Part shown: one piece after another, positions 2,826-40,357 of the stretch | Numbering within the stretch: position 1 is the stretch's first letter | How the letters are laid out: each line of letters opens with the position of its first letter | Sequence record: MT711527.1 | Reading direction: 5' to 3' (one strand) | DNA from: Escherichia phage vB_EcoS_fTaEco01 | Length of the DNA: 41,273 nt | Notes under the pieces: generated by a model | What the model saw: only the letters and a program-made list of their open reading frames with translations | Told to the model about the DNA's origin: nothing | The model's database searches: none | Translations under genes and position numbers: made by a program

Positions 2826-3869
2826 ATGAGCTTACTTACATCACTAATCAGCCACCAGATATGGCTGCAACGCACCGCATCCGGTGAGGTGAAAGACCTC
2901 GCGCCGTTCATTAAGGAGATGCGGGACGAAATCAAACGGCAGGTGCTGCTATTCGGCGACGACGGTCGCAGCACTGCGCGACTGAATAAACTGTTACGTG
3001 ACCTTGAAGAAGCACTGACAGGACTTACTGGTGACTGGCAAACAAAGCTGGCAGAAGACCTCAAGGAACTGGCGGTGTATGAAGCTGAGTGGAACGTAAA
3101 GACCCTGTCCGCCAACGTAGATGCGGAATTTGTTACGCCCACCGCCGAACAGGTGTGGGCCGCTGCTGAGTTTCAGCCATTATCATTGAGTGGCAAGCCA
3201 GTTGATTTCACTAAACTGATGTCAGGTTGGGGTGAAACGGAAGTAGCACGTCTTGTAACCGGCGTTAAGATGGGCTTTGTACAAGGTCAAACAACACGGC
3301 AGATTGTTAAGAATGTAGTAGGCGCCGGTGGGCTGGCTGACATCTCTGAGCGTAACGCCGCTACCGTCATCCGCACCGCGCTGTCTCACGTGTCCAACGA
3401 AGCCCGTAACGAGACGTACCGCCAGAACGACGACATCATCGAGAAGTACGAGTGGGTGTCAACGCTTGACAGCCGCACCAGTACGATTTGCAGGGTCAGA
3501 GACGGGATGACGTGGGAAATTGGTAAGGGGCCGACGCCCCCTGCCCATCCGAACTGCCGGTCGTGCACGGCTCCGGTAATCAGTTCCGAGTTCGACTTCC
3601 TCGATAAAGGCGCAAAACGCGCGGCTAAAGGCGCGGAAGGTGGCACTCAGGTAAGCGTAGACACCACTTACTACGAGTTCCTTAAACAACAACCGGCGTG
3701 GTTTCAGGACCAGGCGCTCGGCCCGGTGCGAGGTAAGATTTTCCGTAACAGCGGTATATCGCCGGAAGAGTTTCGCGTAATATCTGTAGATGGTTTCGGG
3801 AATCCGCTCACGCTTAAGCAGATGGCGGAACTCGATAAACGTGTTGCTGATTATCTGAAAGGGGAATAA
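2826..3869 (+). CDS. head morphogenesis protein (Mu F / SPP1 gp7-like minor head protein)
   Basis: Position after portal; C-terminal region with ICRVRDGMTWEIGKG...HPNCRSC resembles the conserved Cys-containing motif of this family (from memory); ATG 2826 preferred over 2793 because 2793 abuts the upstream terminator. Confidence 0.65.
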   Translation: MSLLTSLISHQIWLQRTASGEVKDLAPFIKEMRDEIKRQVLLFGDDGRSTARLNKLLRDLEEALTGLTGDWQTKLAEDLKELAVYEAEWNVKTLSANVDAEFVTPTAEQVWAAAEFQPLSLSGKPVDFTKLMSGWGETEVARLVTGVKMGFVQGQTTRQIVKNVVGAGGLADISERNAATVIRTALSHVSNEARNETYRQNDDIIEKYEWVSTLDSRTSTICRVRDGMTWEIGKGPTPPAHPNCRSCTAPVISSEFDFLDKGAKRAAKGAEGGTQVSVDTTYYEFLKQQPAWFQDQALGPVRGKIFRNSGISPEEFRVISVDGFGNPLTLKQMAELDKRVADYLKGE

Positions 3870-4330
3870 TGATGGGCTTTTTCAAAGTAACTGACGTACC
3901 GTCTCGTCGCGTAGTCCAGTACGCCCGCGTGTCTGGCTCTGGCGAGAACGTGGTGTTTATTGAAGACGAAAGTGTACTCGGAACACCAGTGGACGATATG
4001 CCGTTTGCGGACAAGACCGGTATTGCGCTGCCAGCGGCAGGTATGCTTTATGAGATTCAGTACCTGGCGGATGCTGGTGATGTGTATTTCTCCGTACAAC
4101 CGCAGGACGCTGAACTGGCAGACGGCAGCGCAAATATCGCTGTCGAAGTTAAGGCGGGCAAAGCACCATATGCGCTGACCTGGTACAAAGACGGGAAGGA
4201 AGTGGTAAACGCCCCGGAAGAGGCTCTGTCTCTGACGGTTAACGCAGTTGGTGAATACTTCGTTAAAGTCACTGATGCAGACGGTATAGAGGCCGTAAGT
4301 AAAGCAGCGAAGGTTACTAAGCCAGAATAA
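3869..4330 (+). CDS. hypothetical protein (possible Ig-like head/decoration protein)
   Basis: 153-aa ORF overlapping upstream stop (TAATG); followed by a strong terminator. Confidence 0.45.
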   Translation: MMGFFKVTDVPSRRVVQYARVSGSGENVVFIEDESVLGTPVDDMPFADKTGIALPAAGMLYEIQYLADAGDVYFSVQPQDAELADGSANIAVEVKAGKAPYALTWYKDGKEVVNAPEEALSLTVNAVGEYFVKVTDADGIEAVSKAAKVTKPE

Positions 4331-4335
4331 ACTGA

Positions 4336-4355
4336 AGCCCCGAAAGGGGCTTTTT
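4336..4355 (+). terminator. rho-independent terminator
   Basis: AGCCCC-GAAA-GGGGCT hairpin followed by TTTTT. Confidence 0.65.
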
Positions 4356-4419
4356 AGTGCCTGTGATTATTCCAGTTATTCCACTCAATTGTAAATGTTG
4401 GAATAAACTATTCGAATAG

Positions 4420-4448
4420 TTGACTTTTCACCAAAAATGTGCTAAGCT
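4420..4448 (+). promoter_or_regulatory. sigma70-like promoter (TTGACT-17 nt-TAAGCT)
   Basis: Hexamers at 4420-4425 and 4443-4448 with 17-nt spacer; the ACTATTCGAATAGT palindrome abuts the -35; near-identical architecture at 34591-34619. Confidence 0.5.
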
Positions 4449-4454
4449 CCACCT

Positions 4455-4650
4455 GAGCTTGTGAAGTATGAACAAGCGACCGCGGCGCGGCAGGTAACGG
4501 AGCCGGACGTTAAGTCCGAGTGTAGTTGCGCTGACGCGTTCGGAAGGGCCATACTCTATTGCTTGTGTAAAAAGTAACTGGTTTACTGAGATTACGCCGT
4601 TTCTATGTTTAAATGATAAGGACTAGCGCCCCGCTTTAAGGCGGGGCTTT
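4455..4650 (+). ncRNA. candidate structured leader / small RNA (copy A of a duplicated element)
   Basis: Region between promoter and hairpin terminator (stem 4628-4634/4641-4647 then TTT); contains the 38-nt core CCTGAGCTTGTGAAGTATGAACAAGCGACCGCGGCGCG (4452-4489) identical to 34623-34660; no conserved ORF. Confidence 0.3.
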
Positions 4651-4671
4651 ACTTATCGAGAAAGGGGAAAC

Positions 4672-5058
4672 ATGAATCTTAAAGCAACTGTCGTAGCGGG
4701 AGCATGTTTCATCATCCTGGCTTACGCACACGGCATCTACCAGTATCGCAGCGGCTGGAACGGAGGCCGGGCGAATCTCGTTTCGCAGCAACAGCAGAAA
4801 GCACAGGCTGAGTTAGCTAAGAAAACACAACGGCAGCAGCAGGATGAATCGAAGGCCGCCGCCGCTGATAACGAAGGCAAGACGAAATCAGAGGTAATCA
4901 CCCGTGAAGTCGTTAAGTACATTAAAACGCCTGGCCGCAGCGTGTGCACTTTTGACCCTGAGCGCGTGCAGCTCAAGTCCCGCGCCGTCGCAAACGCCAA
5001 TTCCATCCCCGGATACGACGATGATGCAGCCGCCGTGCAAACTGGCACTGCCAAGTAA
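4672..5058 (+). CDS. i-spanin (Rz-like)
   Basis: 128 aa; N-terminal hydrophobic segment, Q/A/K-rich coiled-coil-like middle; contains an overlapping out-of-frame lipoprotein ORF (Rz/Rz1 architecture). Confidence 0.55.
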   Translation: MNLKATVVAGACFIILAYAHGIYQYRSGWNGGRANLVSQQQQKAQAELAKKTQRQQQDESKAAAADNEGKTKSEVITREVVKYIKTPGRSVCTFDPERVQLKSRAVANANSIPGYDDDAAAVQTGTAK

Positions 5059-5167
5059 CGACGCGGACGAGGATTTAGCTATTGACGTCCAGAACGCAGA
5101 ATGTGTACGGCAACTGAGACTTAAAGTGTTCATGTTGCAGGATTACGTGAGGAATATTCTGGAATAG
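4904..5167 (+). CDS. o-spanin (Rz1-like outer-membrane lipoprotein), overlapped with i-spanin gene
   Basis: GTG start with GAGGT RBS; signal peptide ending in lipobox LSAC; short proline-rich mature region; starts inside 4672-5058 in another frame and extends past it. Confidence 0.55.
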   Translation: MKSLSTLKRLAAACALLTLSACSSSPAPSQTPIPSPDTTMMQPPCKLALPSNDADEDLAIDVQNAECVRQLRLKVFMLQDYVRNILE

Positions 5168-5246
5168 TTGCCTTGTATGTTGGAATAATTTATTCTTGAC
5201 ATGTAAATCCGGGTGGCCCGGATTCCAACGTCCAGGGGACATACTG

Positions 5247-5873
5247 ATGAGCGAAGAAGTGAAAGACGAAACTATCGAACAACAAGAGACTAAGACCACG
5301 TTTACCAAAGAAGAAGTTGACGCGCTGGTATCCGGTCTTAAAGCTAACAACGAGAAACTCTTGTCTGAAAAGAAAGCTGCCGCCGCTGCCGCGAAAGAAG
5401 CCGCAGATGCGAAGCTGAAAGCCGAACAGGAACGCGCAAAACAGAACGGCGAACTTGAGGCATTCGAGAAAACGTTGCGCAGTCAGTATGAGCCAGTACT
5501 CGCCGAGAAAGACGGTAAGATTAGCAAAATGGCTGAGCGTATCCTCGGCGCAGAACGTAAATCAGTTATCAGCCAGTTGTCTGGCATGTTGATTGATGAG
5601 AGCGCAGCGGATATTATCGCTATGATGGTCAAGACCGAATTTGACGGCGATGACGTTGTGACCAAGTTCACAGGTGCGGACGGTAATGTCATCACCACCG
5701 ACGCAGAGCAATTTAAAAAGTATCTGCGTGAGCACAAAGCATTCTCACATCTGATTAAAGCAGATGCAGCAACCGGCGGCGGGGCTTCCGGTAACAAAAA
5801 TTCTACTGGCGGGGCCGGTGGTACGGACGTAATTCAACAAAAACTTAACGCCAAATACGGCAAACGAGGATAA
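5247..5873 (+). CDS. scaffolding protein (positional/compositional call)
   Basis: Acidic, alanine/lysine-rich coiled-coil-like protein immediately upstream of major capsid gene; ATG 5247 preferred over the TTG at 5196 in the ORF track. Confidence 0.5.
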   Translation: MSEEVKDETIEQQETKTTFTKEEVDALVSGLKANNEKLLSEKKAAAAAAKEAADAKLKAEQERAKQNGELEAFEKTLRSQYEPVLAEKDGKISKMAERILGAERKSVISQLSGMLIDESAADIIAMMVKTEFDGDDVVTKFTGADGNVITTDAEQFKKYLREHKAFSHLIKADAATGGGASGNKNSTGGAGGTDVIQQKLNAKYGKRG

Positions 5874-5879
5874 GAGATT

Positions 5880-6848
5880 ATGGCTCTGTCAGATATGAAG
5901 GTTTATAACGACGATATCGTCGGTACCACTATCGAACTGCTTGGTCAGAAAACTGACCAGTTTAACGCGGCCTCCGGTGGTGCAATTGTACTGTCTACTG
6001 CCTCATGGCGCGGTGATTTCTCCCGTGAGTCTTTCTTTAACCAGATTGCCTCCGCTAAACGCCGCGTTGACCGTTACGCCGCTATCGCGTCTCAGGCAGC
6101 TACCGCGCTGACTCAGGGCGAGCATGTAGGCGTTAAAGTCGCTGGCGGCTTCGGACCGGTACTGTTCGAGCCTGCGCAAATGACCTGGCTGAACGAAGAC
6201 CCGGCAAGCGCGATTCGTGCTATTTCCGAAGGCTTCTCTGACGCACTGTTAGCGGACCAGCTCAACACCGCTGTTGGTGCCGCCGTTGCCGCGGTATCAG
6301 GTCAGACTGCACTGGTTAACGATGTATCCGCGACCGCTGGCTTGTCCCTGAACGTGCTGAACAACAGCCACGCTAAATTCGGCGACCAGTCTCAGCTGCT
6401 GATTACCGACATCATGACCGGTGCTGCTTACCACACGCTGGTAGATAAAGCGCTGACTAACGCAAACCAGCTGTTCGTTGCTGGTAACGTTATGGTTGTC
6501 GATGTTCTCGGCAAGCGTTACGTAATCTCTGACATTCCTGCGCTGTACGAGGCCGGCACTCCGAACAAGACTAAGGTCCTGTCCGTAGTTGCAAACGGCA
6601 TCATCGTTGATAATGCTTCTGACATTATCAGCAACATTGATACCAGCAACGGTAACACCCGCATCCAGACCACCTGGCAGGCAGATTACAGCTTCGGCCT
6701 GAAACTGAAAGGCTATAGCTGGGATGTCGCCAACGGCGGTAAATCTCCGCTGGACGCAGAACTGTTCACCGCGACTAACTGGGACAAAGCTGTTGCCGAG
6801 AACAAGCACACCCTCGGTACTCTGGCAATCGCCGACGCAGACCTGTAA
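5880..6848 (+). CDS. major capsid protein
   Basis: 322-aa ORF following scaffold-like gene and followed by a strong terminator. Confidence 0.65.
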   Translation: MALSDMKVYNDDIVGTTIELLGQKTDQFNAASGGAIVLSTASWRGDFSRESFFNQIASAKRRVDRYAAIASQAATALTQGEHVGVKVAGGFGPVLFEPAQMTWLNEDPASAIRAISEGFSDALLADQLNTAVGAAVAAVSGQTALVNDVSATAGLSLNVLNNSHAKFGDQSQLLITDIMTGAAYHTLVDKALTNANQLFVAGNVMVVDVLGKRYVISDIPALYEAGTPNKTKVLSVVANGIIVDNASDIISNIDTSNGNTRIQTTWQADYSFGLKLKGYSWDVANGGKSPLDAELFTATNWDKAVAENKHTLGTLAIADADL

Positions 6849-11264: not shown

Positions 11265-12391
11265 CCAAGCATCTCCGGTGAAATAGTTAAACGTGCGACC
11301 TCGCCATATTCGGCGCTATAAGTAATTACGTTTGCACTGCGGCCCGACATCCACCCACCGCGGGAGGCATATGCATCTTTAGCCGCGAGAGTGCGGTGTT
11401 GCTCAACAATCATGTTACGGCTTTCTACAATCTTTTGGTGGTGCAGGTGACCCACGTGGGCGTAGCTGTAAACACTCTCGCCGAACGCTTTGCGGAACTT
11501 GGCAATCATAACCGGTTCGATAGCGTCGAATCGTGCTTTATGCCCATGATGGAAGAACAGCGTCGTTTTGCCGTGTTGCACCATCTTGTAAACATCCGGC
11601 GACGTATCGACGAACACACGCGGTTCATTGTCGTACAGCGTACTAAACATCTCAGCTAACCAAATCATTCCGCTTTCGTCGTGGTTACCTTGCACGATAA
11701 GCAAGCGAACATTTTTATGTTTAACGAGAGCCATATCAATGACACGGCGGACCATACGAATCATGTAGCGTACAAGTTTCTGATAGCGGGTGTCAGCGTC
11801 AAGAACATGACCACTGGCAGGTGTAACGGCGTCCAGACTATCGAAATGCGCAAGGTCGCCCAGCAGATTAATAACTCCTGTTCCGGCATCCGGTGCTTTC
11901 TGGAACGCTGCGTCGAACCAGCGGGAGAACAGGTCTTCCGCAATCTTCATGTCCCAGTCGTCGCCGCTCTCGTCAGCCCAGGCCAGCATACCGAGATGGA
12001 AATCAGACACAGTGTAAAGGTTGAGTAGCTTGTCGTCTCGTTTGGCGCGAACGGCTTTAACAGGTGCAACTGGTGTAATCTCCGACTTCATGCCTTCGAT
12101 TACGGCTTTCATCAATTCAACCTGACGTTCGGCATCGGTGTCGGTCTTAACCCATTGCAACTTGGTGTTGCCAAACTCATCCACAAGTGACGACGTCCCT
12201 TTAATCTTGTAGCCGTCCGGCACAAGGTGGCTAACGTCACGCCCGTGGCCTACGCCTTTCTTCGCAAGTTTCGCTTTACGGATACGAATAACGCGGTCTG
12301 AGATGCCGTATTTACGGGCGATGTCGATATTCTTCATACCGGCGTTCAATTCTTCCTGTAACTGTTCGTCGGTTATTTTCTTCCTGGCCAT
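11261..12391 (-). CDS. calcineurin-like metallophosphoesterase with N-terminal helix-turn-helix domain
   Basis: Metallophosphoesterase motifs in order: SDFH, GDLAHFD, GNHD, HHGH, GHLHH; basic HTH-like N-terminus; GAGGA RBS. Confidence 0.7.
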   Translation of the reverse strand: MARKKITDEQLQEELNAGMKNIDIARKYGISDRVIRIRKAKLAKKGVGHGRDVSHLVPDGYKIKGTSSLVDEFGNTKLQWVKTDTDAERQVELMKAVIEGMKSEITPVAPVKAVRAKRDDKLLNLYTVSDFHLGMLAWADESGDDWDMKIAEDLFSRWFDAAFQKAPDAGTGVINLLGDLAHFDSLDAVTPASGHVLDADTRYQKLVRYMIRMVRRVIDMALVKHKNVRLLIVQGNHDESGMIWLAEMFSTLYDNEPRVFVDTSPDVYKMVQHGKTTLFFHHGHKARFDAIEPVMIAKFRKAFGESVYSYAHVGHLHHQKIVESRNMIVEQHRTLAAKDAYASRGGWMSGRSANVITYSAEYGEVARLTISPEMLG

Positions 12392-12635: not shown

Positions 12636-12650
12636 TGTTGGTGTAAGTGA

Positions 12651-12679
12651 ATAGTACCCTATTATATTGGGGTGTGCAA
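12651..12679 (-). promoter_or_regulatory. promoter (TTGCAC-17 nt-TACTAT) for the minus-strand accessory cassette
   Basis: Reverse complement gives TTGCAC-ACCCCAATATAATAGGG-TACTAT; nearly identical to plus-strand promoters at 34888-34916 and 36181-36209. Confidence 0.5.
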
Positions 12680-25344: not shown

Positions 25345-25629
25345 TTAACTATAATAGCTCGCTATTAGGTCGTCAACCTGTTTAAACGAACCAACGATAA
25401 AAACATTTGCACCGCGTTTACGCATCCGCTCGTGCTCACGTATCTGGTGCGGGTCTGGCTTCGTGTTTTCGTCTTTCTTAACCTCGACGAACCATATGAC
25501 GCCGCCAGGGAGAATTACCAGCAGGTCGGGAGCGCCGGAGCGCCCCTCGTAGGAGAGCTTACGAACGAGGCCGCCGATGGCCTCGAATCGCTCTTTTGCG
25601 TATTTCTGTATTTTGCCTTCCGGTGTCAT
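25345..25629 (-). CDS. VRR-NUC domain nuclease
   Basis: PD-(D/E)xK-type core GAPDLLVIL...VIWFVEVKK; ATG 25629 preferred over TTG 25644. Confidence 0.6.
   Translation of the reverse strand: MTPEGKIQKYAKERFEAIGGLVRKLSYEGRSGAPDLLVILPGGVIWFVEVKKDENTKPDPHQIREHERMRKRGANVFIVGSFKQVDDLIASYYS
25348..25376 (-). promoter_or_regulatory. internal promoter (TTGACG-17 nt-TATAGT)
   Basis: Reverse complement TTGACG-ACCTAATAGCGAGCTAT-TATAGT; lies in the 3' end of the VRR-NUC gene. Confidence 0.45.
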
Positions 25630-28901: not shown

Positions 28902-28930
28902 ACTATAATAGCTAACTATTCAGGTGTCAA
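28902..28930 (-). promoter_or_regulatory. internal promoter (TTGACA-17 nt-TATAGT)
   Basis: Reverse complement TTGACA-CCTGAATAGTTAGCTAT-TATAGT just upstream of the SSB-like gene. Confidence 0.5.
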
Positions 28931-28934
28931 CACT

Positions 28935-30188
28935 TTATTCCAAATCTTCTTCACTAACCTGATTCCACTCAGGACGTTTGTCGTCTGCCGTTGCGACACA
29001 TGGTGCGCCCGGCTTACGGGTAATAAACGGCTCAAGCGCTGCCATCTCATCCGCCGAAAGAACTTTTGCTGCCTCCGTAGGGGACATCAATACCTCTTTT
29101 TTGAGAATGTCGCCGTGTGACACTTCAATCGCATCGGCATCTTTCCACGCACGGTTACCCATCTTACCTTCAACCAGCTTGTACCCAGGAACTTTCTTAC
29201 CGGAATGCAATGCGGCGGTCATCGCTTTCTCAACCTTGTCGATGTGCTGGCGTAACAGCGGCAACTTCTCATACTCAACTACGAGTTGCTCCGTCGTCAG
29301 TTCCAGCACAAAGTCGTCTTCAAGTTCTTCCGCCAGTACAGAATTAACCGTCTTTGTACGCGCGGCACACTGTTCAGAGAACCGGCACCACTGGCAACCA
29401 TCTACTGACGGCTTAAAGTCTGACGCTTTCAGGTTCTTCTTACCGCGGAAATATGCATCAAGTGCTAACAGTGCTCGTTTTTGTGCGAACTTAGCGAACA
29501 GTTCCAGGCCTTCAACCGAGATATCCCACTCCGACGCACCCCCAGCGTACGGCTGGAAGATGACCAGACGAACAGTTGTTATGTTATAACGTCTCTTGAG
29601 TCGGCGATAGACACCGAGCGCGTAAAGCATAAGCTGCTTGTTTTCTTTCGCTTCAACACGATGCCGTCCAGTTTTAAGGTCGCCAATAATGAGCATGTGC
29701 TCGTCGGTGTTCGCCAGTTCCTGGACAGCAACGAGGTCAGCCGTTCCGAACGTCTCGACACCTTCATACCCAGGATGCAATACCTCAGTAAGATTGACTC
29801 GCATTTCCAGCTTGGCGTAAGTCGCTACGTCGATAATCGCTTTGCAGTAGTCGGTGTACTTGCGCACCTGCTCAATCATGTCCGCCGTAATCAGTACCGC
29901 GCCTTTCATTGGGCTGATTAGCGCCTTAATCTGGCCTTTACCTTCATCCAGCACGTAAGCGCCGACTTCGCGCTCTAACGGCAACGCGGTTCCTTTGATG
30001 TACTGGTTTAAATGGACCTCAGCTATAGTGTGGCACGCGGTTCCTGTAACGGCGGCTTTACCGGACGTGTTAGGAATATCTTTTTCACAGGCCAGAGAAG
30101 CCGGGCAGGTTAGCCACTTTTTAGCGCCTGACGGTGATAGTAAGGCGTGTACATCGTTATTGCCGCCGCGCTCTTTTAGAATCATCAT
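28935..30188 (-). CDS. PD-(D/E)xK family nuclease, Cas4/RecB-like (DUF2800-type)
   Basis: N-terminal LLSPSGAKKWLTCPASLAC, C-terminal Cys cluster DGCQWCRFSEQC consistent with Cas4-like Fe-S nucleases. Confidence 0.6.
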   Translation of the reverse strand: MMILKERGGNNDVHALLSPSGAKKWLTCPASLACEKDIPNTSGKAAVTGTACHTIAEVHLNQYIKGTALPLEREVGAYVLDEGKGQIKALISPMKGAVLITADMIEQVRKYTDYCKAIIDVATYAKLEMRVNLTEVLHPGYEGVETFGTADLVAVQELANTDEHMLIIGDLKTGRHRVEAKENKQLMLYALGVYRRLKRRYNITTVRLVIFQPYAGGASEWDISVEGLELFAKFAQKRALLALDAYFRGKKNLKASDFKPSVDGCQWCRFSEQCAARTKTVNSVLAEELEDDFVLELTTEQLVVEYEKLPLLRQHIDKVEKAMTAALHSGKKVPGYKLVEGKMGNRAWKDADAIEVSHGDILKKEVLMSPTEAAKVLSADEMAALEPFITRKPGAPCVATADDKRPEWNQVSEEDLE

Positions 30189-31307: not shown

Positions 31308-31336
31308 ACTATAATAGCGAACTATTCACTTGTCAA
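31308..31336 (-). promoter_or_regulatory. promoter (TTGACA-17 nt-TATAGT) for leftward operon
   Basis: Reverse complement TTGACA-AGTGAATAGTTCGCTAT-TATAGT. Confidence 0.5.
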
Positions 31337-31340
31337 TGGG

Positions 31341-31369
31341 CTTTTCTAAAATAATTAATATGGTACTAT
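31341..31369 (+). promoter_or_regulatory. possible rightward promoter with extended -10 (TGG-TACTAT)
   Basis: TG-n-TACTAT at 31361-31369 upstream of the regulator gene; -35 poor. Confidence 0.3.
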
Positions 31370-31400
31370 TCACATATCAACTGACTAAGGAGTAATTGGC

Positions 31401-31616
31401 ATGCAACCATCTGAACTAGGTATCCGTGTAGAGCAACGCCGTAAAGAACTCGGTATCTCCCAGCGCCATCTGGCTGTCCTGGCCGGTGTTTCCCAAGGCG
31501 CAATTAACCAGCTTGCACTCGGTGTAACTCAGGACGTCCGCCCGGCGACGCTGTTTAAACTGGCGGAAGTGCTTGAAGTAGACGCCAAGTGGCTGGCGTT
31601 CGGTGAAGGGGCTTAA
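31401..31616 (+). CDS. XRE-family helix-turn-helix transcriptional regulator (Cro/CI-like)
   Basis: 71 aa with HTH core LGISQRHLAVLAGVSQGAINQLA; AAGGAG RBS; own terminator; only plus-strand gene inside the minus-strand block. Confidence 0.7.
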   Translation: MQPSELGIRVEQRRKELGISQRHLAVLAGVSQGAINQLALGVTQDVRPATLFKLAEVLEVDAKWLAFGEGA

Positions 31617-34070: not shown

Positions 34071-34304
34071 CTAGCGTTGGGGTTTCTTTTGTCTACGCAC
34101 CGCATTAACCCACTCTCCTTCGCTACGGTAAAAACTGCAATCAAGGATATCCTCTATAGAAAATTTAACTATTTTAGTGGGTCCACAAAAGTTATAAGGG
34201 AAAAGTTCTACATAACACCCATCGTCGGTTATATTTGACGCAATCTTGAAATAATATTTAATGCTGCCGTCTTCGCGGAAGCTACAACCCATACGCCCAA
34301 TCAT
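34071..34304 (-). CDS. hypothetical protein
   Basis: 77-aa ORF ATGA-coupled to upstream HTH gene. Confidence 0.4.
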   Translation of the reverse strand: MIGRMGCSFREDGSIKYYFKIASNITDDGCYVELFPYNFCGPTKIVKFSIEDILDCSFYRSEGEWVNAVRRQKKPQR

Positions 34305-34483
34305 TTCACGTTCTCCTTAATCCATGCTTCAACTTTATTACGGTCGAATGTTCCCGGTAAACGGCGACCCATAACCTTAATACAACAATCCGGGAATTTA
34401 CCACTGCGTAACCAGTTATTAATTGTCTGACGTGTCACCCCAATACGCTCGGCTACTTCATTCTGGGTCATGTAATGTTGCAT
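34301..34483 (-). CDS. helix-turn-helix DNA-binding protein (AlpA/excisionase-like fold), first gene of leftward early operon
   Basis: MTQNEVAERIGVTRQTINNWL HTH core; CAGGAG RBS before ATG 34483. Confidence 0.55.
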   Translation of the reverse strand: MQHYMTQNEVAERIGVTRQTINNWLRSGKFPDCCIKVMGRRLPGTFDRNKVEAWIKENVK

Positions 34484-34514
34484 TTTTAAATCTCCTGTTT
34501 GTTTGGTGAAGCCA

Positions 34515-34543
34515 AGTATAGGATAGCGGGAATGTAAAAGCAA
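34515..34543 (-). promoter_or_regulatory. leftward early promoter (TTGCTT-17 nt-TATACT)
   Basis: Reverse-complement hexamers with 17-nt spacer; back-to-back with the rightward promoter at 34591-34619. Confidence 0.45.
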
Positions 34544-34590
34544 CCAAAACACCACACAAAGTTACTAAGATACAAAAGATGCTACTAGTA

Positions 34591-34887: not shown

Positions 34888-34916
34888 TTGCACACCCCAA
34901 CATAATAGGATACTAT
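34888..34916 (+). promoter_or_regulatory. promoter (TTGCAC-17 nt-TACTAT) for rightward small-gene cluster
   Basis: TTGCAC-ACCCCAACATAATAGGA-TACTAT. Confidence 0.5.
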
Positions 34917-34950
34917 TCACTTATCGAAACGAGACAGAGGAGTGAGGGTT

Positions 34951-36180: not shown

Positions 36181-36209
36181 TTGCACACTAAGATAGAATA
36201 GGCTACTAT
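36181..36209 (+). promoter_or_regulatory. promoter (TTGCAC-17 nt-TACTAT)
   Basis: TTGCAC-ACTAAGATAGAATAGGC-TACTAT. Confidence 0.45.
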
Positions 36210-36240
36210 TCATTTACACAAACGAGAGGAGAGACAGAAT

Positions 36241-39054: not shown

Positions 39055-39204
39055 ATGAAAATCACAGACATCGAAGCATTCAAAGACGCACAACTGATGG
39101 CACGCATCGCCGTTAGTAACCTGAGCAACAGCATTCCTGCGGACGCGTTCTGGTTCGCTGCGATGCAGACACTTAAAGCAGCTTACGCAGGAGAGAAGAA
39201 ATGA
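39055..39204 (+). CDS. hypothetical small protein (49 aa)
   Basis: GGAG RBS; first ORF after promoter. Confidence 0.35.
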   Translation: MKITDIEAFKDAQLMARIAVSNLSNSIPADAFWFAAMQTLKAAYAGEKK

Positions 39205-39359
39205 GCGAGTCAGAAGGAAATATCACGACACCATCCGCCGGGAAGAAAGTCAACCGCACCCCGTTCCCGACACGAGAGGAACTGATGAAACGTAACAGTT
39301 TCCCTGGGCCGGACAAGAACAAGTATCTTAATCGCATGTGGGGAGAGCGTAAAGAATGA
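39201..39359 (+). CDS. hypothetical small protein (52 aa)
   Basis: ATGA coupling. Confidence 0.35.
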   Translation: MSESEGNITTPSAGKKVNRTPFPTREELMKRNSFPGPDKNKYLNRMWGERKE

Positions 39360-39541
39360 CTGACCGCGAATACGAAAAGATGATGGTAGAGGCTGTTAAC
39401 GGCGGCGTAGACATCGGACACGTGATGCACGTCCTGAATACTAAAATCGCGGTAGCTGAGCAAATGGTTGAGTCGCTTTATGAGACGCGCCGTGAACTGA
39501 TTAACCGCTTCAACCTGAACAAAGGTGACACCAATGCCTAA
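39356..39541 (+). CDS. hypothetical protein
   Basis: 61-aa ORF, ATGA-coupled. Confidence 0.45.
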   Translation: MTDREYEKMMVEAVNGGVDIGHVMHVLNTKIAVAEQMVESLYETRRELINRFNLNKGDTNA

Positions 39542-39953: not shown

Positions 39954-40124
39954 ATGTTCAGTGACATTAACGCGGCAATCGAAGAAGCAATCTGGCGTCG
40001 CTACAACGGCGAGCAACAACGGCACTTCTGCCTGGTGCAGCGCGGTAACGTGATTGCCGTGGTACAGGACCGCGATAGTAAATATCCGAATGCGATGTGG
40101 ACAACGAGGAATTTCTTAGGATGA
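39954..40124 (+). CDS. hypothetical small protein (56 aa)
   Basis: Tightly spaced, co-oriented. Confidence 0.35.
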   Translation: MFSDINAAIEEAIWRRYNGEQQRHFCLVQRGNVIAVVQDRDSKYPNAMWTTRNFLG

Positions 40125-40357
40125 TTACCAGCATTCCGAACCTGATTAAAGAATTCGGCACGATGGCGGAGACATGCCGACAAACCGGCATCAACGAGAT
40201 GACGATTGCCAAGTACAGCAAAGACGTTAACTGCGAGCGCCATGTAATTTATAACAACCGTCTGATGACGCACGTTAAGACAAGCCCGGTGTTATTCACG
40301 CGCCGGGGTATCACTAAAACGGAGCAACGTATTGCTAAAGAGGAGAGTGGGGAATGA
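40121..40357 (+). CDS. hypothetical protein, possible DNA-binding
   Basis: ATGA-coupled; ATG 40121 preferred over ORF-track start 40097. Confidence 0.4.
   Translation: MITSIPNLIKEFGTMAETCRQTGINEMTIAKYSKDVNCERHVIYNNRLMTHVKTSPVLFTRRGITKTEQRIAKEESGE

Follow-up and report, generated by a model that had tools for sequence, protein, structure and literature searches.

A conserved GGAATAA/TTATTCC repeat array at two internal promoters of Guernseyvirinae phages, with a NinH-like protein as candidate regulator

INTRODUCTION

Why do two promoters of a virulent phage, one ahead of lysis genes and the other ahead of head genes, carry the same short repeats? The question is raised by Escherichia phage vB_EcoS_fTaEco01 (MT711527.1), whose complete genome of 41,273 nucleotides (nt), here called the window, is of the Kagunavirus type (Guernseyvirinae). 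Repeats of GGAATAA, or TTATTCC on the other strand, cluster in this genome between the gene of a Hoc-like decoration protein and the Rz/Rz1 spanin genes (site 1) and again in front of the scaffold and major capsid genes (site 2). We report that these repeats are a real, non-random and conserved cis-regulatory array at two internal promoters, P1 and P2. From the pattern of the repeats and their distribution we lean, by a small measure, toward the view that they are GGAATAA half-sites of a multi-site array for one phage-encoded DNA-binding protein, with a NinH-like protein as the best candidate.

Guernseyvirinae are widely isolated as phages for therapy and biocontrol, and their transcription program is essentially unmapped. 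For the promoters of Kagunavirus, Jerseyvirus and Guernseyvirinae, only PHIRE or BPROM predictions were found in the literature, and we found there no description of the GGAATAA array, of its link to a NinH-like protein or of the leader RNA described below. Salmonella phage MB78 is a relative, and the record of phage SETP3 notes that the SETP3 Hoc-like gene matches MB78 p21; Zargar et al., in Virus Genes in 1997, reportedly described a strong MB78 promoter with which a phage-specific factor interacts, and that work may concern the same region. Protein-binding repeats at phage promoters are a familiar kind of element; this array and its putative regulator are undescribed. What is gained is two testable promoters, a defined cis-element, one candidate regulator and natural control phages without both sites and gene. 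If the NinH link were true, the NinH family would acquire its first defined targets and a physiological role, a widespread family would acquire a function, and a Fis-type fold would have been re-tuned to a new half-site.

RESULTS

Repeats at two intergenic sites

The 8-mer TGGAATAA occurs five times in the window (1.17 expected), a count that was reached in 0 of 100 shuffles. Two short intergenic regions, about 420 nt in all, hold four of the five copies, and the fifth (28935-28942) lies across a stop codon, that of a nuclease gene. At site 1, TTATTCCA is found at 4367-4374 and 4376-4383 as direct repeats 9 base pairs (bp) apart, and this pair is inverted relative to the TGGAATAA copy at 4399-4406, which is the first half of a dyad. 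A preliminary description of this DNA had spoken of inverted copies at 4367-4384, which holds with respect to the copy at 4399-4406 but not with respect to each other. All of the repeats that it had listed were found in place, within 1 base, with GTTGGAATAA at 4397-4406 and 5179-5188 and TGGAATA at 5160-5166; TTGACT lies at 4420-4425 and TTGACA at 5196-5201.

Taken alone, the 10-mer GTTGGAATAA is not significant (three copies with one mismatch allowed, 2.45 expected), and neither is the clustering in the window of the hexamer GGAATA/TATTCC (P ~0.08), which is significantly clustered in phages TS33, SenTO17 and phiEap-2. The unit common to both sites is a 19-mer (ATGTTGGAATAAACTATTC / ATGTTGGAATAATTTATTC), written ATGTTGGAATAA(AC/TT)TATTC, which contains the dyad GAATA-N3-TATTC; GAATAGTTG(A/C)CTT is likewise common to both. 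The dyad occurs twice in the window against 0.03 expected, only at 4401-4413 (D1) and 5183-5195 (D2). The signal is carried by the 8-mer and the dyad, not by the hexamer.

Table 1. Features of the repeat array and its surroundings in the window (positions relative to transcription starts are predictions)
Feature	Coordinates	Strand	Description
Terminase, portal and head morphogenesis genes			Precede the Hoc-like gene, in this order
Hoc-like decoration protein gene	3869-4330		Followed by terminator hairpin
Bidirectional terminator hairpin	4335-4352	no strand	End of terminase-to-Hoc-like operon; left limit of site 1; followed by 340 gene-free nt
Leftward promoter-like element	4366-4395	-	TTTACA-18-TGgAATAAT; predicted start ~4359
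Pair A	4367-4383	-	TTATTCCA g TTATTCCA (reverse complement TGGAATAA); ~-88 to -72 from predicted P1 start
Pair B / dyad D1	4399-4413	no strand	TGGAATAAACTATTC (GAATA-N3-TATTC); centre 4407
16-bp perfect palindrome	4406-4421	no strand	AACTATTCGAATAGTT; overlaps dyad, abuts P1 -35; Kagunavirus-specific
P1	4420-4448	+	-35 TTGACT (4420-4425), 17-bp spacer, extended -10 TGcTAAGCT (4440-4448); predicted start ~4455
Structured leader / small RNA	4455-4652	+	Terminator-like hairpin (4628-4647) at end
Rz-like i-spanin gene	4672-5058	+	
o-Spanin gene	4904-5167	+	Embedded in/overlapping i-spanin gene; followed by 80 nt intergenic
Site 2 upstream half-sites	5150-5167	+	AGGAATATTC + TGGAATAG; ~-53 to -36 from predicted P2 start
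P2	5168-5196	+	-35 TTGCCT (5168-5173), 17-bp spacer, -10 TATTCT (5191-5196); predicted start ~5203
Dyad D2	5181-5195	no strand	TGGAATAATTTATTC; centre 5189, ~-14 from predicted P2 start
Hairpin	5206-5224	+	AATCCGGG tgg CCCGGATT; 5' end of predicted P2 transcript
Scaffold gene	5248-		
Major capsid gene	5880-		
NinH-like helix-turn-helix gene	40121-40357	+	78 amino acids; candidate trans-acting factor

Conservation of the array

In 178 records of Escherichia, Salmonella, Shigella and Raoultella phages, the 341-nt Hoc-spanin intergenic region, leader included, was at least 94% identical, and in many of these its identity exceeded that of the flanking spanin protein. The array, in which two direct TTATTCC copies 9 bp apart are followed by the dyad, is common to Kagunavirus, Jerseyvirus, Cornellvirus and phiEap-2 at equal distance from the promoter, with the surrounding sequence diverged. 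Even where the i-spanin is only 47-64% identical, the half-sites keep a fixed distance from the P1 -10, with diverged spacers between them; in an alignment anchored on this -10, the window, K1H, SETP3, SP-049 and phiEap-2 have both TATTCC cores, and likewise the dyad, in common columns. The region is rewritten in the SETP3-type clade (i-spanin ~64% identical), yet ATTATTCCAGTTATTCC, TGTAAAT and GGAATA-N3-TATTC survive at site 1, and site 2 retains AGGAATATTCTGGAATAGTTGCCTT...TGGAATAATTTATTCTTG. Another leader sequence, but the same array, is found in Cornellvirus FSL SP-049, in phiEap-2 (an Enterobacter phage) and in TS33 (a Hafnia phage). TS33 has its array turned round as one block: dyad and direct pair have traded places and occupy the same two positions, which lie ~32 bp (three helical turns) apart. 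The dyad is found exactly twice per ~40-kilobase (kb) genome in the window, SETP3 and TS33, both times at the homologous places, and at these places also in Cornellvirus and phiEap-2; TS33, SP-049 and phiEap-2 carry a perfect 7-1-7 palindrome, GGAATAAnTTATTCC. Absence of the repeats from related phages would have told against the preliminary description; we found the opposite, repeats that exceed chance and are conserved in related as well as divergent phages.

Lineages without the sites provide a contrast. Serratia phage Tsm2 has the same gene order, P1 (TTGCGG-17-TATGCT), P2 and the P2 hairpin; both places are free of GGAATAA half-sites, and the dyad is missing from the whole genome. A metagenomic lineage (L236, L237 and L240) also keeps the gene order, P1, P2 and the P2 hairpin, with half-sites absent at both places. 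Serratia phage Eta, in which a complete lysis cassette occupies this position, is likewise without the sites.

These patterns bear on what kind of element the repeats are, for which the preliminary description had offered an activator binding site or an UP-like element. A protein-binding site is the best explanation. An UP-like or bent AT-rich element, acting through the alpha subunit of RNA polymerase with no specific protein, would agree with the AT-rich sequence from -40 to -90 of P1 and with the A-tract spacer between the pairs in the Cornellvirus and phiEap-2 types, but we regard it as very unlikely, given that the G-G and C-C of GGAATA/TATTCC are conserved while AT-rich spacers vary, that the array holds its position when inverted, that the motif at P2 lies inside the core promoter (spacer/-10) instead of upstream of the -35 and that the site-free lineages still have working-looking promoters.

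Additional or missing copies were seen in some phages. In phiEap-2, two whole arrays (11499-11540 and 11840-11890), inverted, lie around a small leftward gene and a terminator, and the left array copy has no obvious adjacent promoter. In Cornellvirus types (SP-049 1550-1566, SenTO17 and L239), the dyad recurs without mismatch in ATGAATAAATTATTCC, the start of the o-spanin gene; this may be chance, given the coding of an MNKLFL signal peptide, or else a third site. The Cornellvirus-like locus L238 (IMG/VR 3300024308_000053) has the NinH-like gene and site 2 and no GGAATAA array within 300 nt upstream of the spanin gene, so that loss or relocation of site 1 can take place independently. Among the matches listed for the exact 15-mer TATTCCAGTTATTCC in IMG/VR, most were unrelated contigs.

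P1 and the leftward promoter-like element

The extended -10 pattern of P1, TGnTAnnCT, and its spacing are kept in all lineages compared; in the window, this -10 is weak and GC-rich. The preliminary description had counted the promoter at 4420 among late-gene promoters. No structural gene follows directly: P1 fronts a ~200-nt non-coding leader and then the Rz/Rz1 spanin (lysis) genes. On the other strand, a conserved TGTAAAT block and the first repeat together make up a leftward promoter-like element (10/12, with TG), the -10 and spacer of which are the two direct repeats. Counted from the centre of D1 (4407), the predicted starts of P1 (4455) and of the leftward element (4359) are each 48 bp away.

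Could the repeats be core-promoter elements and nothing else? In that case TGGAATAAT would be an extended -10 (TGnAATAAT), used leftward with TTTACA at site 1, TATTCT would merely be the P2 -10, and promoter duplication, with no dedicated factor, would account for the likeness of the two sites. TTTACA-18-TGgAATAAT indeed tops the sigma-70 matches of the region, the right half of D2 is kept as a -10 in lineages without the NinH-like gene, and a leftward gene is present here in phiEap-2, Cornellvirus and K1H, with TGGAATAAT as its obvious -10 in phiEap-2. Most copies, however, cannot be a -10: the TG or the -7 T is missing from TGGAATAAC, TGGAATAAA and AGGAATAAA, and AGGAATAA copies are also without TG. 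The conserved letters are GGAATA with both G's, not the T's that a -10 requires, and in most Kagunaviruses (the insert type described below included) the -7 T of the leftward element is lost while TATTCC is retained. In the window, moreover, a leftward transcript would meet the terminator after ~30 nt, and the loss of repeats at both sites together and the conserved G-G would be left unexplained. We therefore consider core-promoter elements alone an improbable account of the array.

P2 and its hairpin

P2 was compared in an eight-lineage alignment anchored on the ribosome-binding region. TTGC(C/A/T)N-17-TATTCT (TATATT in Tsm2) was present in 8 of 8 lineages, always 12-13 nt before a hairpin, and both hexamers align even where the NinH-like gene is missing (TTGCCC-17-TATATT in Tsm2, TTGCAC-17-TATTCT in L240). 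The TTGACA at 5196, previously read as a -35, does not bear that reading: the SETP3 clade has TTGTTA in its place, TS33 has TATATT and Tsm2 has TCGTAA, and there is no -10 downstream of it.

With P2 placed in this way, GTTGGAATAA at 5179-5188 lies within the spacer, and the -10 itself is formed by the right half of D2, so that the geometry of D2 looks like that of an operator and not of an upstream activator site. The half-sites GGAATATTC and TGGAATAG (5150-5167) adjoin the P2 -35 and, in the window, overlap the last o-spanin codons. GGAATAGTTGCC is retained in Cornellvirus, where it is non-coding, and its conservation is therefore not for the o-spanin protein alone; it is absent from lineages without the NinH-like gene. 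The left half of D2, GGAATAA, is likewise found only in genomes with the NinH-like gene; at P2 of L240, the -10 half TTTATTCTTGACA of D2 is kept and GCCTTTAC replaces TGGAATAA.

The stems of the P2 hairpin vary (ACACCGGG/CCCGGTGT, AGCCGGG/CCCGGCT, GCGAGC/GCTCGC and GAGTGGGG/CCCTACTC), with the pairing kept in five lineages. Since pairing outlasts sequence change, the hairpin acts at the RNA level, at the predicted 5' end of the scaffold/capsid mRNA, and it is probably an mRNA-stabilising 5' stem-loop.

A NinH-like protein as candidate factor

Three helix-turn-helix proteins were found in the early region, where the Pfam scan took in 20 small proteins: an XRE-type protein (31401-31616), an HTH_17 protein (34301-34555) and the NinH-like protein (40121-40357). 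The first was rejected as the site-binding factor since it is also present in Tsm2, which is without sites, and the second since it is missing from TS33 and SenTO17, which both have them. The NinH-like protein of the window matches PF06322 weakly (21.8 bits, E = 1.8e-4, under the 29.8-bit cut-off); close relatives carry a precomputed PF06322 assignment, and several records name the protein NinH. It is 62-71% identical in SETP3, TS33, SenTO17 and phiEap-2 and absent from Tsm2 and Eta.

Gene and sites were both present in five complete genomes, and dyads were found in 28/28 IMG/VR loci that carry the NinH-like gene (loci taken with 10-kb flanks and counted only where the relevant region was covered). 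Both were absent from Tsm2, Eta, L236, L237 and L240, and there were no discordant cases. L239, at first sight a counter-example in having dyads and no NinH-like gene, was left out, its 10-kb flank ending inside the terminase gene before the relevant region. The helix-turn-helix residues of the NinH-like protein are nearly invariant across lineages, in line with the invariant half-site. Lambda NinH is a Fis-like protein that has been proven to bind and bend DNA at 15-bp pseudo-palindromes with an AT-rich core, and no target promoters are known for it (PMC7166090). The candidate probably belongs to this family, and the perfect TS33 and Cornellvirus dyads are, like Fis and lambda NinH sites, 15-bp G-N13-C sequences.

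A number of points weigh against a NinH-like regulator of these promoters, the first being the sites themselves. In the window and in most copies the conserved G and C have a spacing of 11 nt, not 13 as in the NinH/Fis motif; G-N13-C is present in GGAATAAnTTATTCC (TS33, SP-049 and phiEap-2), whereas D1 of the window has G...G and D2 has G...T. Positions -4/-3 of the half-site GGAATAA are A-T (purine-pyrimidine), where the motif wants pyrimidine-purine steps at -4/-3 and +3/+4 (PMC7166090), and the residue that matches Fis Arg85 is Glu in a by-eye alignment. The use of both direct and inverted half-site pairs by one dimeric protein would be unusual. The open reading frames 39201-39359 and 39356-39541 have the same presence/absence pattern as the NinH-like gene, and the gene-free lineages are only three or four and not host-independent, two being Serratia phages. 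The AlphaFold2 model of the protein, a three-helix helix-turn-helix with a beta hairpin, is of modest confidence (predicted local distance difference test score of 66); in the PDB, Foldseek matched it weakly to helix-turn-helix structures (N15 Cro and LysR DNA-binding domains), in no case significantly, and a sequence search of the PDB gave no match. Klebsiella phage Wooten has a NinH-like protein that is 50% identical and yet no dyads; because the recognition helix of this protein differs, Wooten neither supports nor refutes the link. As for the promoters, the sigma-70 consensus scan did not call P1, the -10 of which matches 3/6, and P2, with 8/12 consensus matches, is below the scan threshold; the P1 and P2 positions relative to the starts are for this reason predictions. 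Weighing these points, we consider it possible, though doubtful, that the NinH-like protein is the factor of the sites, and slightly more doubtful that it serves as the dedicated regulator of the two internal lysis/head promoters in Guernseyvirinae through the GGAATAA array.

A host protein of the Enterobacterales (Fis, Lrp or another transcription or nucleoid-associated factor) could bind the sites instead and tune P1 and P2. The phages with sites infect Escherichia, Salmonella, Hafnia and Enterobacter, and two site-free lineages infect Serratia; GGAATAAnTTATTCC in TS33, SP-049 and phiEap-2 is a 15-bp G-N13-C sequence with an AT-rich core, as for Fis (PMC7166090). The window copies, on the other hand, break the G-N13-C rule, and in a comparison by eye with consensus sequences the half-site fitted none of ARG box, IclR/AllR, RcsAB, Fur, Lrp, TyrR, IHF, DnaA and CRP, the mismatches being in spacing or key bases. 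The P2 Ogr-type sequence TGT-N12-ACA, compared in the same way, was rejected for its spacing and key bases. Perfect co-occurrence with a phage gene block is more simply explained by a phage factor, and we judge a host factor unlikely, if a little less so than core-promoter elements alone.

Proposed mode of action

We infer from sequence that a protein binds, which protein it is and where transcription starts; the direction of regulation at each promoter is also our inference only, because sequence cannot show it. In the proposed mechanism, the array ties together two internal sigma-70 promoters that would restart transcription past the terminator at 4335-4352, P1 leading to the structured leader and spanin genes and P2 to the scaffold and capsid genes. 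A single regulator, linking both promoters, would be bound at four half-sites ahead of P1 and at three or four in the P2 region. At P1, the direct pair (~-88 to -72) and the dyad (-48) would be on the same helix face, the layout of an upstream activating or architectural complex; such a complex is suggested because the position is fixed, the orientation is reversible, the pairs are three turns apart and the -10 is weak. The P1 pairs would also cover the -10 and spacer of the leftward element. At P2, where half-sites abut the -35 (~-53 to -36) and the dyad lies over the spacer/-10 (~-14), the layout would be that of an operator, and occlusion is suggested because the dyad overlaps the -10, with a similar layout at the leftward element. 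We prefer a dual regulator that would occlude P2 and the leftward element and, at P1, bend DNA or recruit RNA polymerase. Dyad symmetry is found at both sites; pair A, however, is a direct repeat, and overlap with core elements of the predicted promoters is seen at P2 and at the leftward element but not at P1 (centre -48).

Two known systems offer parallels, and a dual regulator like phi29 p4 or lambda cI would fit the layout. Protein p4 of phi29 (A2b/A2c/A3) is a small phage DNA-bending protein with several repeat sites in a compact promoter region; bound upstream it activates one promoter, and by overlap with the core it represses others, as we propose here. It differs in that its sequence and its sites are unrelated and it is not of the NinH/Fis type, and binding and direction of regulation are only proposed for the present array. 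In lambda OR (cI/Cro, PR/PRM) and other phage operators, as here, dyads lie between and within back-to-back promoters, and one site may repress one promoter while being at an activating distance from the other. Unlike lambda, the present phage is virulent, with no evident immunity region at the locus, its pairs are both direct and inverted, and its promoters serve lysis and head genes.

The structured leader

Downstream of P1, covariation in the leader was marked: 97.7% of cells were paired, against 32-48% in slid controls, with 8 compensatory pairs against 0-3. No reading frame is conserved in the leader, in which single-base indels and, in the SETP3 type, larger indels are present, and no credible match was found in Rfam (gathering thresholds over the whole window, E-value mode over 4300-5300). 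A motif, CGGAAGGGCC, is common to the otherwise different Kagunavirus, Jerseyvirus and Cornellvirus/phiEap-2 leaders, and Tsm2 has CGGAAAG. The leader looks like an undescribed RNA family. In the window, the T-tract of its terminator-like hairpin is broken (TTTACTT); the SETP3 type has a weak tract (TTAGCGT), and the Cornellvirus/phiEap-2 types have none. Because the tract is weak or missing in other lineages, a free small RNA is less likely than a structured 5' leader belonging to the spanin mRNA. A 36-amino-acid frame annotated as a gene in phage fKuEco01 (4468-4578) was rejected: in the window, the frame (4468-4497) has 9 codons after a 1-base indel, and the fKuEco01 hypothetical protein is probably an annotation artefact.

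The layout recalls the late region of phage lambda, in which PR', the 6S RNA and tR' are followed by lysis and head genes under Q antitermination. Here too a promoter, a ~200-nt non-coding RNA with a terminator-like hairpin, lysis genes and head genes follow one another, and the NinH-like gene ends the preceding operon, as ninH and Q do in lambda. In contrast to lambda, the T-tract is weak or absent in the SETP3 and Cornellvirus types, the leader structure is conserved, and no Q-like protein was found by Pfam. Lambda-type Q antitermination was rejected, as no Q family was found among the 20 small early-region proteins and the T-tract is interrupted, weak or absent. One possibility is that the regulator and the structured leader RNA would together act as a timing switch for spanin and capsid expression.

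A second palindrome family

A different palindrome, AATAG-N4-CTATT, has six exact sites in the window (12650-12663, 25353-25366, 28907-28920, 31313-31326, 34904-34917 and 36197-36210) and a variant at 31358-31371. The sites lie in the spacer/-10 of near-consensus sigma-70 promoters of early/replication genes, on either strand, and two copies flank the XRE-type gene (31401-31616); they are probably operators of the XRE protein. They match the PHIRE consensus of the "phage promoter" motif tgAATAGTa-ccTATTat-T, which has been reported for Kagunavirus fBC-Eco01 (PMC9825357); the GGAATAA array is absent from the text of that paper. Like the array, the PHIRE motif is a repeated palindrome at promoters in the same genus, and it has GAATAG letters in common with the palindrome at 4406-4421; it is unlike the array in its half-sites (AATAG-N4 versus GAATA 6 bp from the centre), in its promoter set and in its lineage distribution.

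Conservation of the palindrome AACTATTCGAATAGTT does not extend to the SETP3, Cornellvirus or TS33 types; as it shares GAATAGT with the AATAG-N4-CTATT family, two regulators may cross-talk at 4406-4421. In the P2 spacer of Tsm2, at the spot of D2, lies AAATAGtgcgCTATA, a near-perfect copy of AATAG-N4-CTATT, and such a replacement is what exchanged operators would look like.

Surroundings of the sites

Across 3800-5900, fKuEco01 is 99.7% identical to the window, and phage K1H is collinear with it. No tRNA or tmRNA was found by ARAGORN. Both sites adjoin places where gene content changes between relatives, which raises the possibility that the repeats mark junctions of module exchange or recombination and that regulation is incidental. 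Leftward-gene insertions always adjoin the first repeat, phiEap-2 has its second inverted array beyond a leftward gene, the TS33 array is inverted, and homology to most relatives ends at the scaffold start, just after site 2. We nevertheless give this explanation hardly any weight, as no recombinase is evident, the distance to the -10 is base-exact across lineages, which suggests a promoter-linked function, and the distribution matches a DNA-binding gene.

At site 2, the end of homology to most Kagunaviruses falls exactly on the scaffold start codon (5247/5248); one scaffold/capsid module is present in the window, K1H, TS33 and Tsm2 and another in most relatives, so that site 2 is on a mosaic junction. 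At site 1, many Kagunaviruses have ~170 nt extra between the terminator hairpin and the first repeat (K1H 4355-4530; window equivalent 4353-4367). The minus strand of this insert codes for a hydrophobic protein of 35 amino acids, which has an AATAG-type promoter to itself, and phiEap-2 and Cornellvirus have different leftward genes at the same spot, which is a hotspot for gene insertion.

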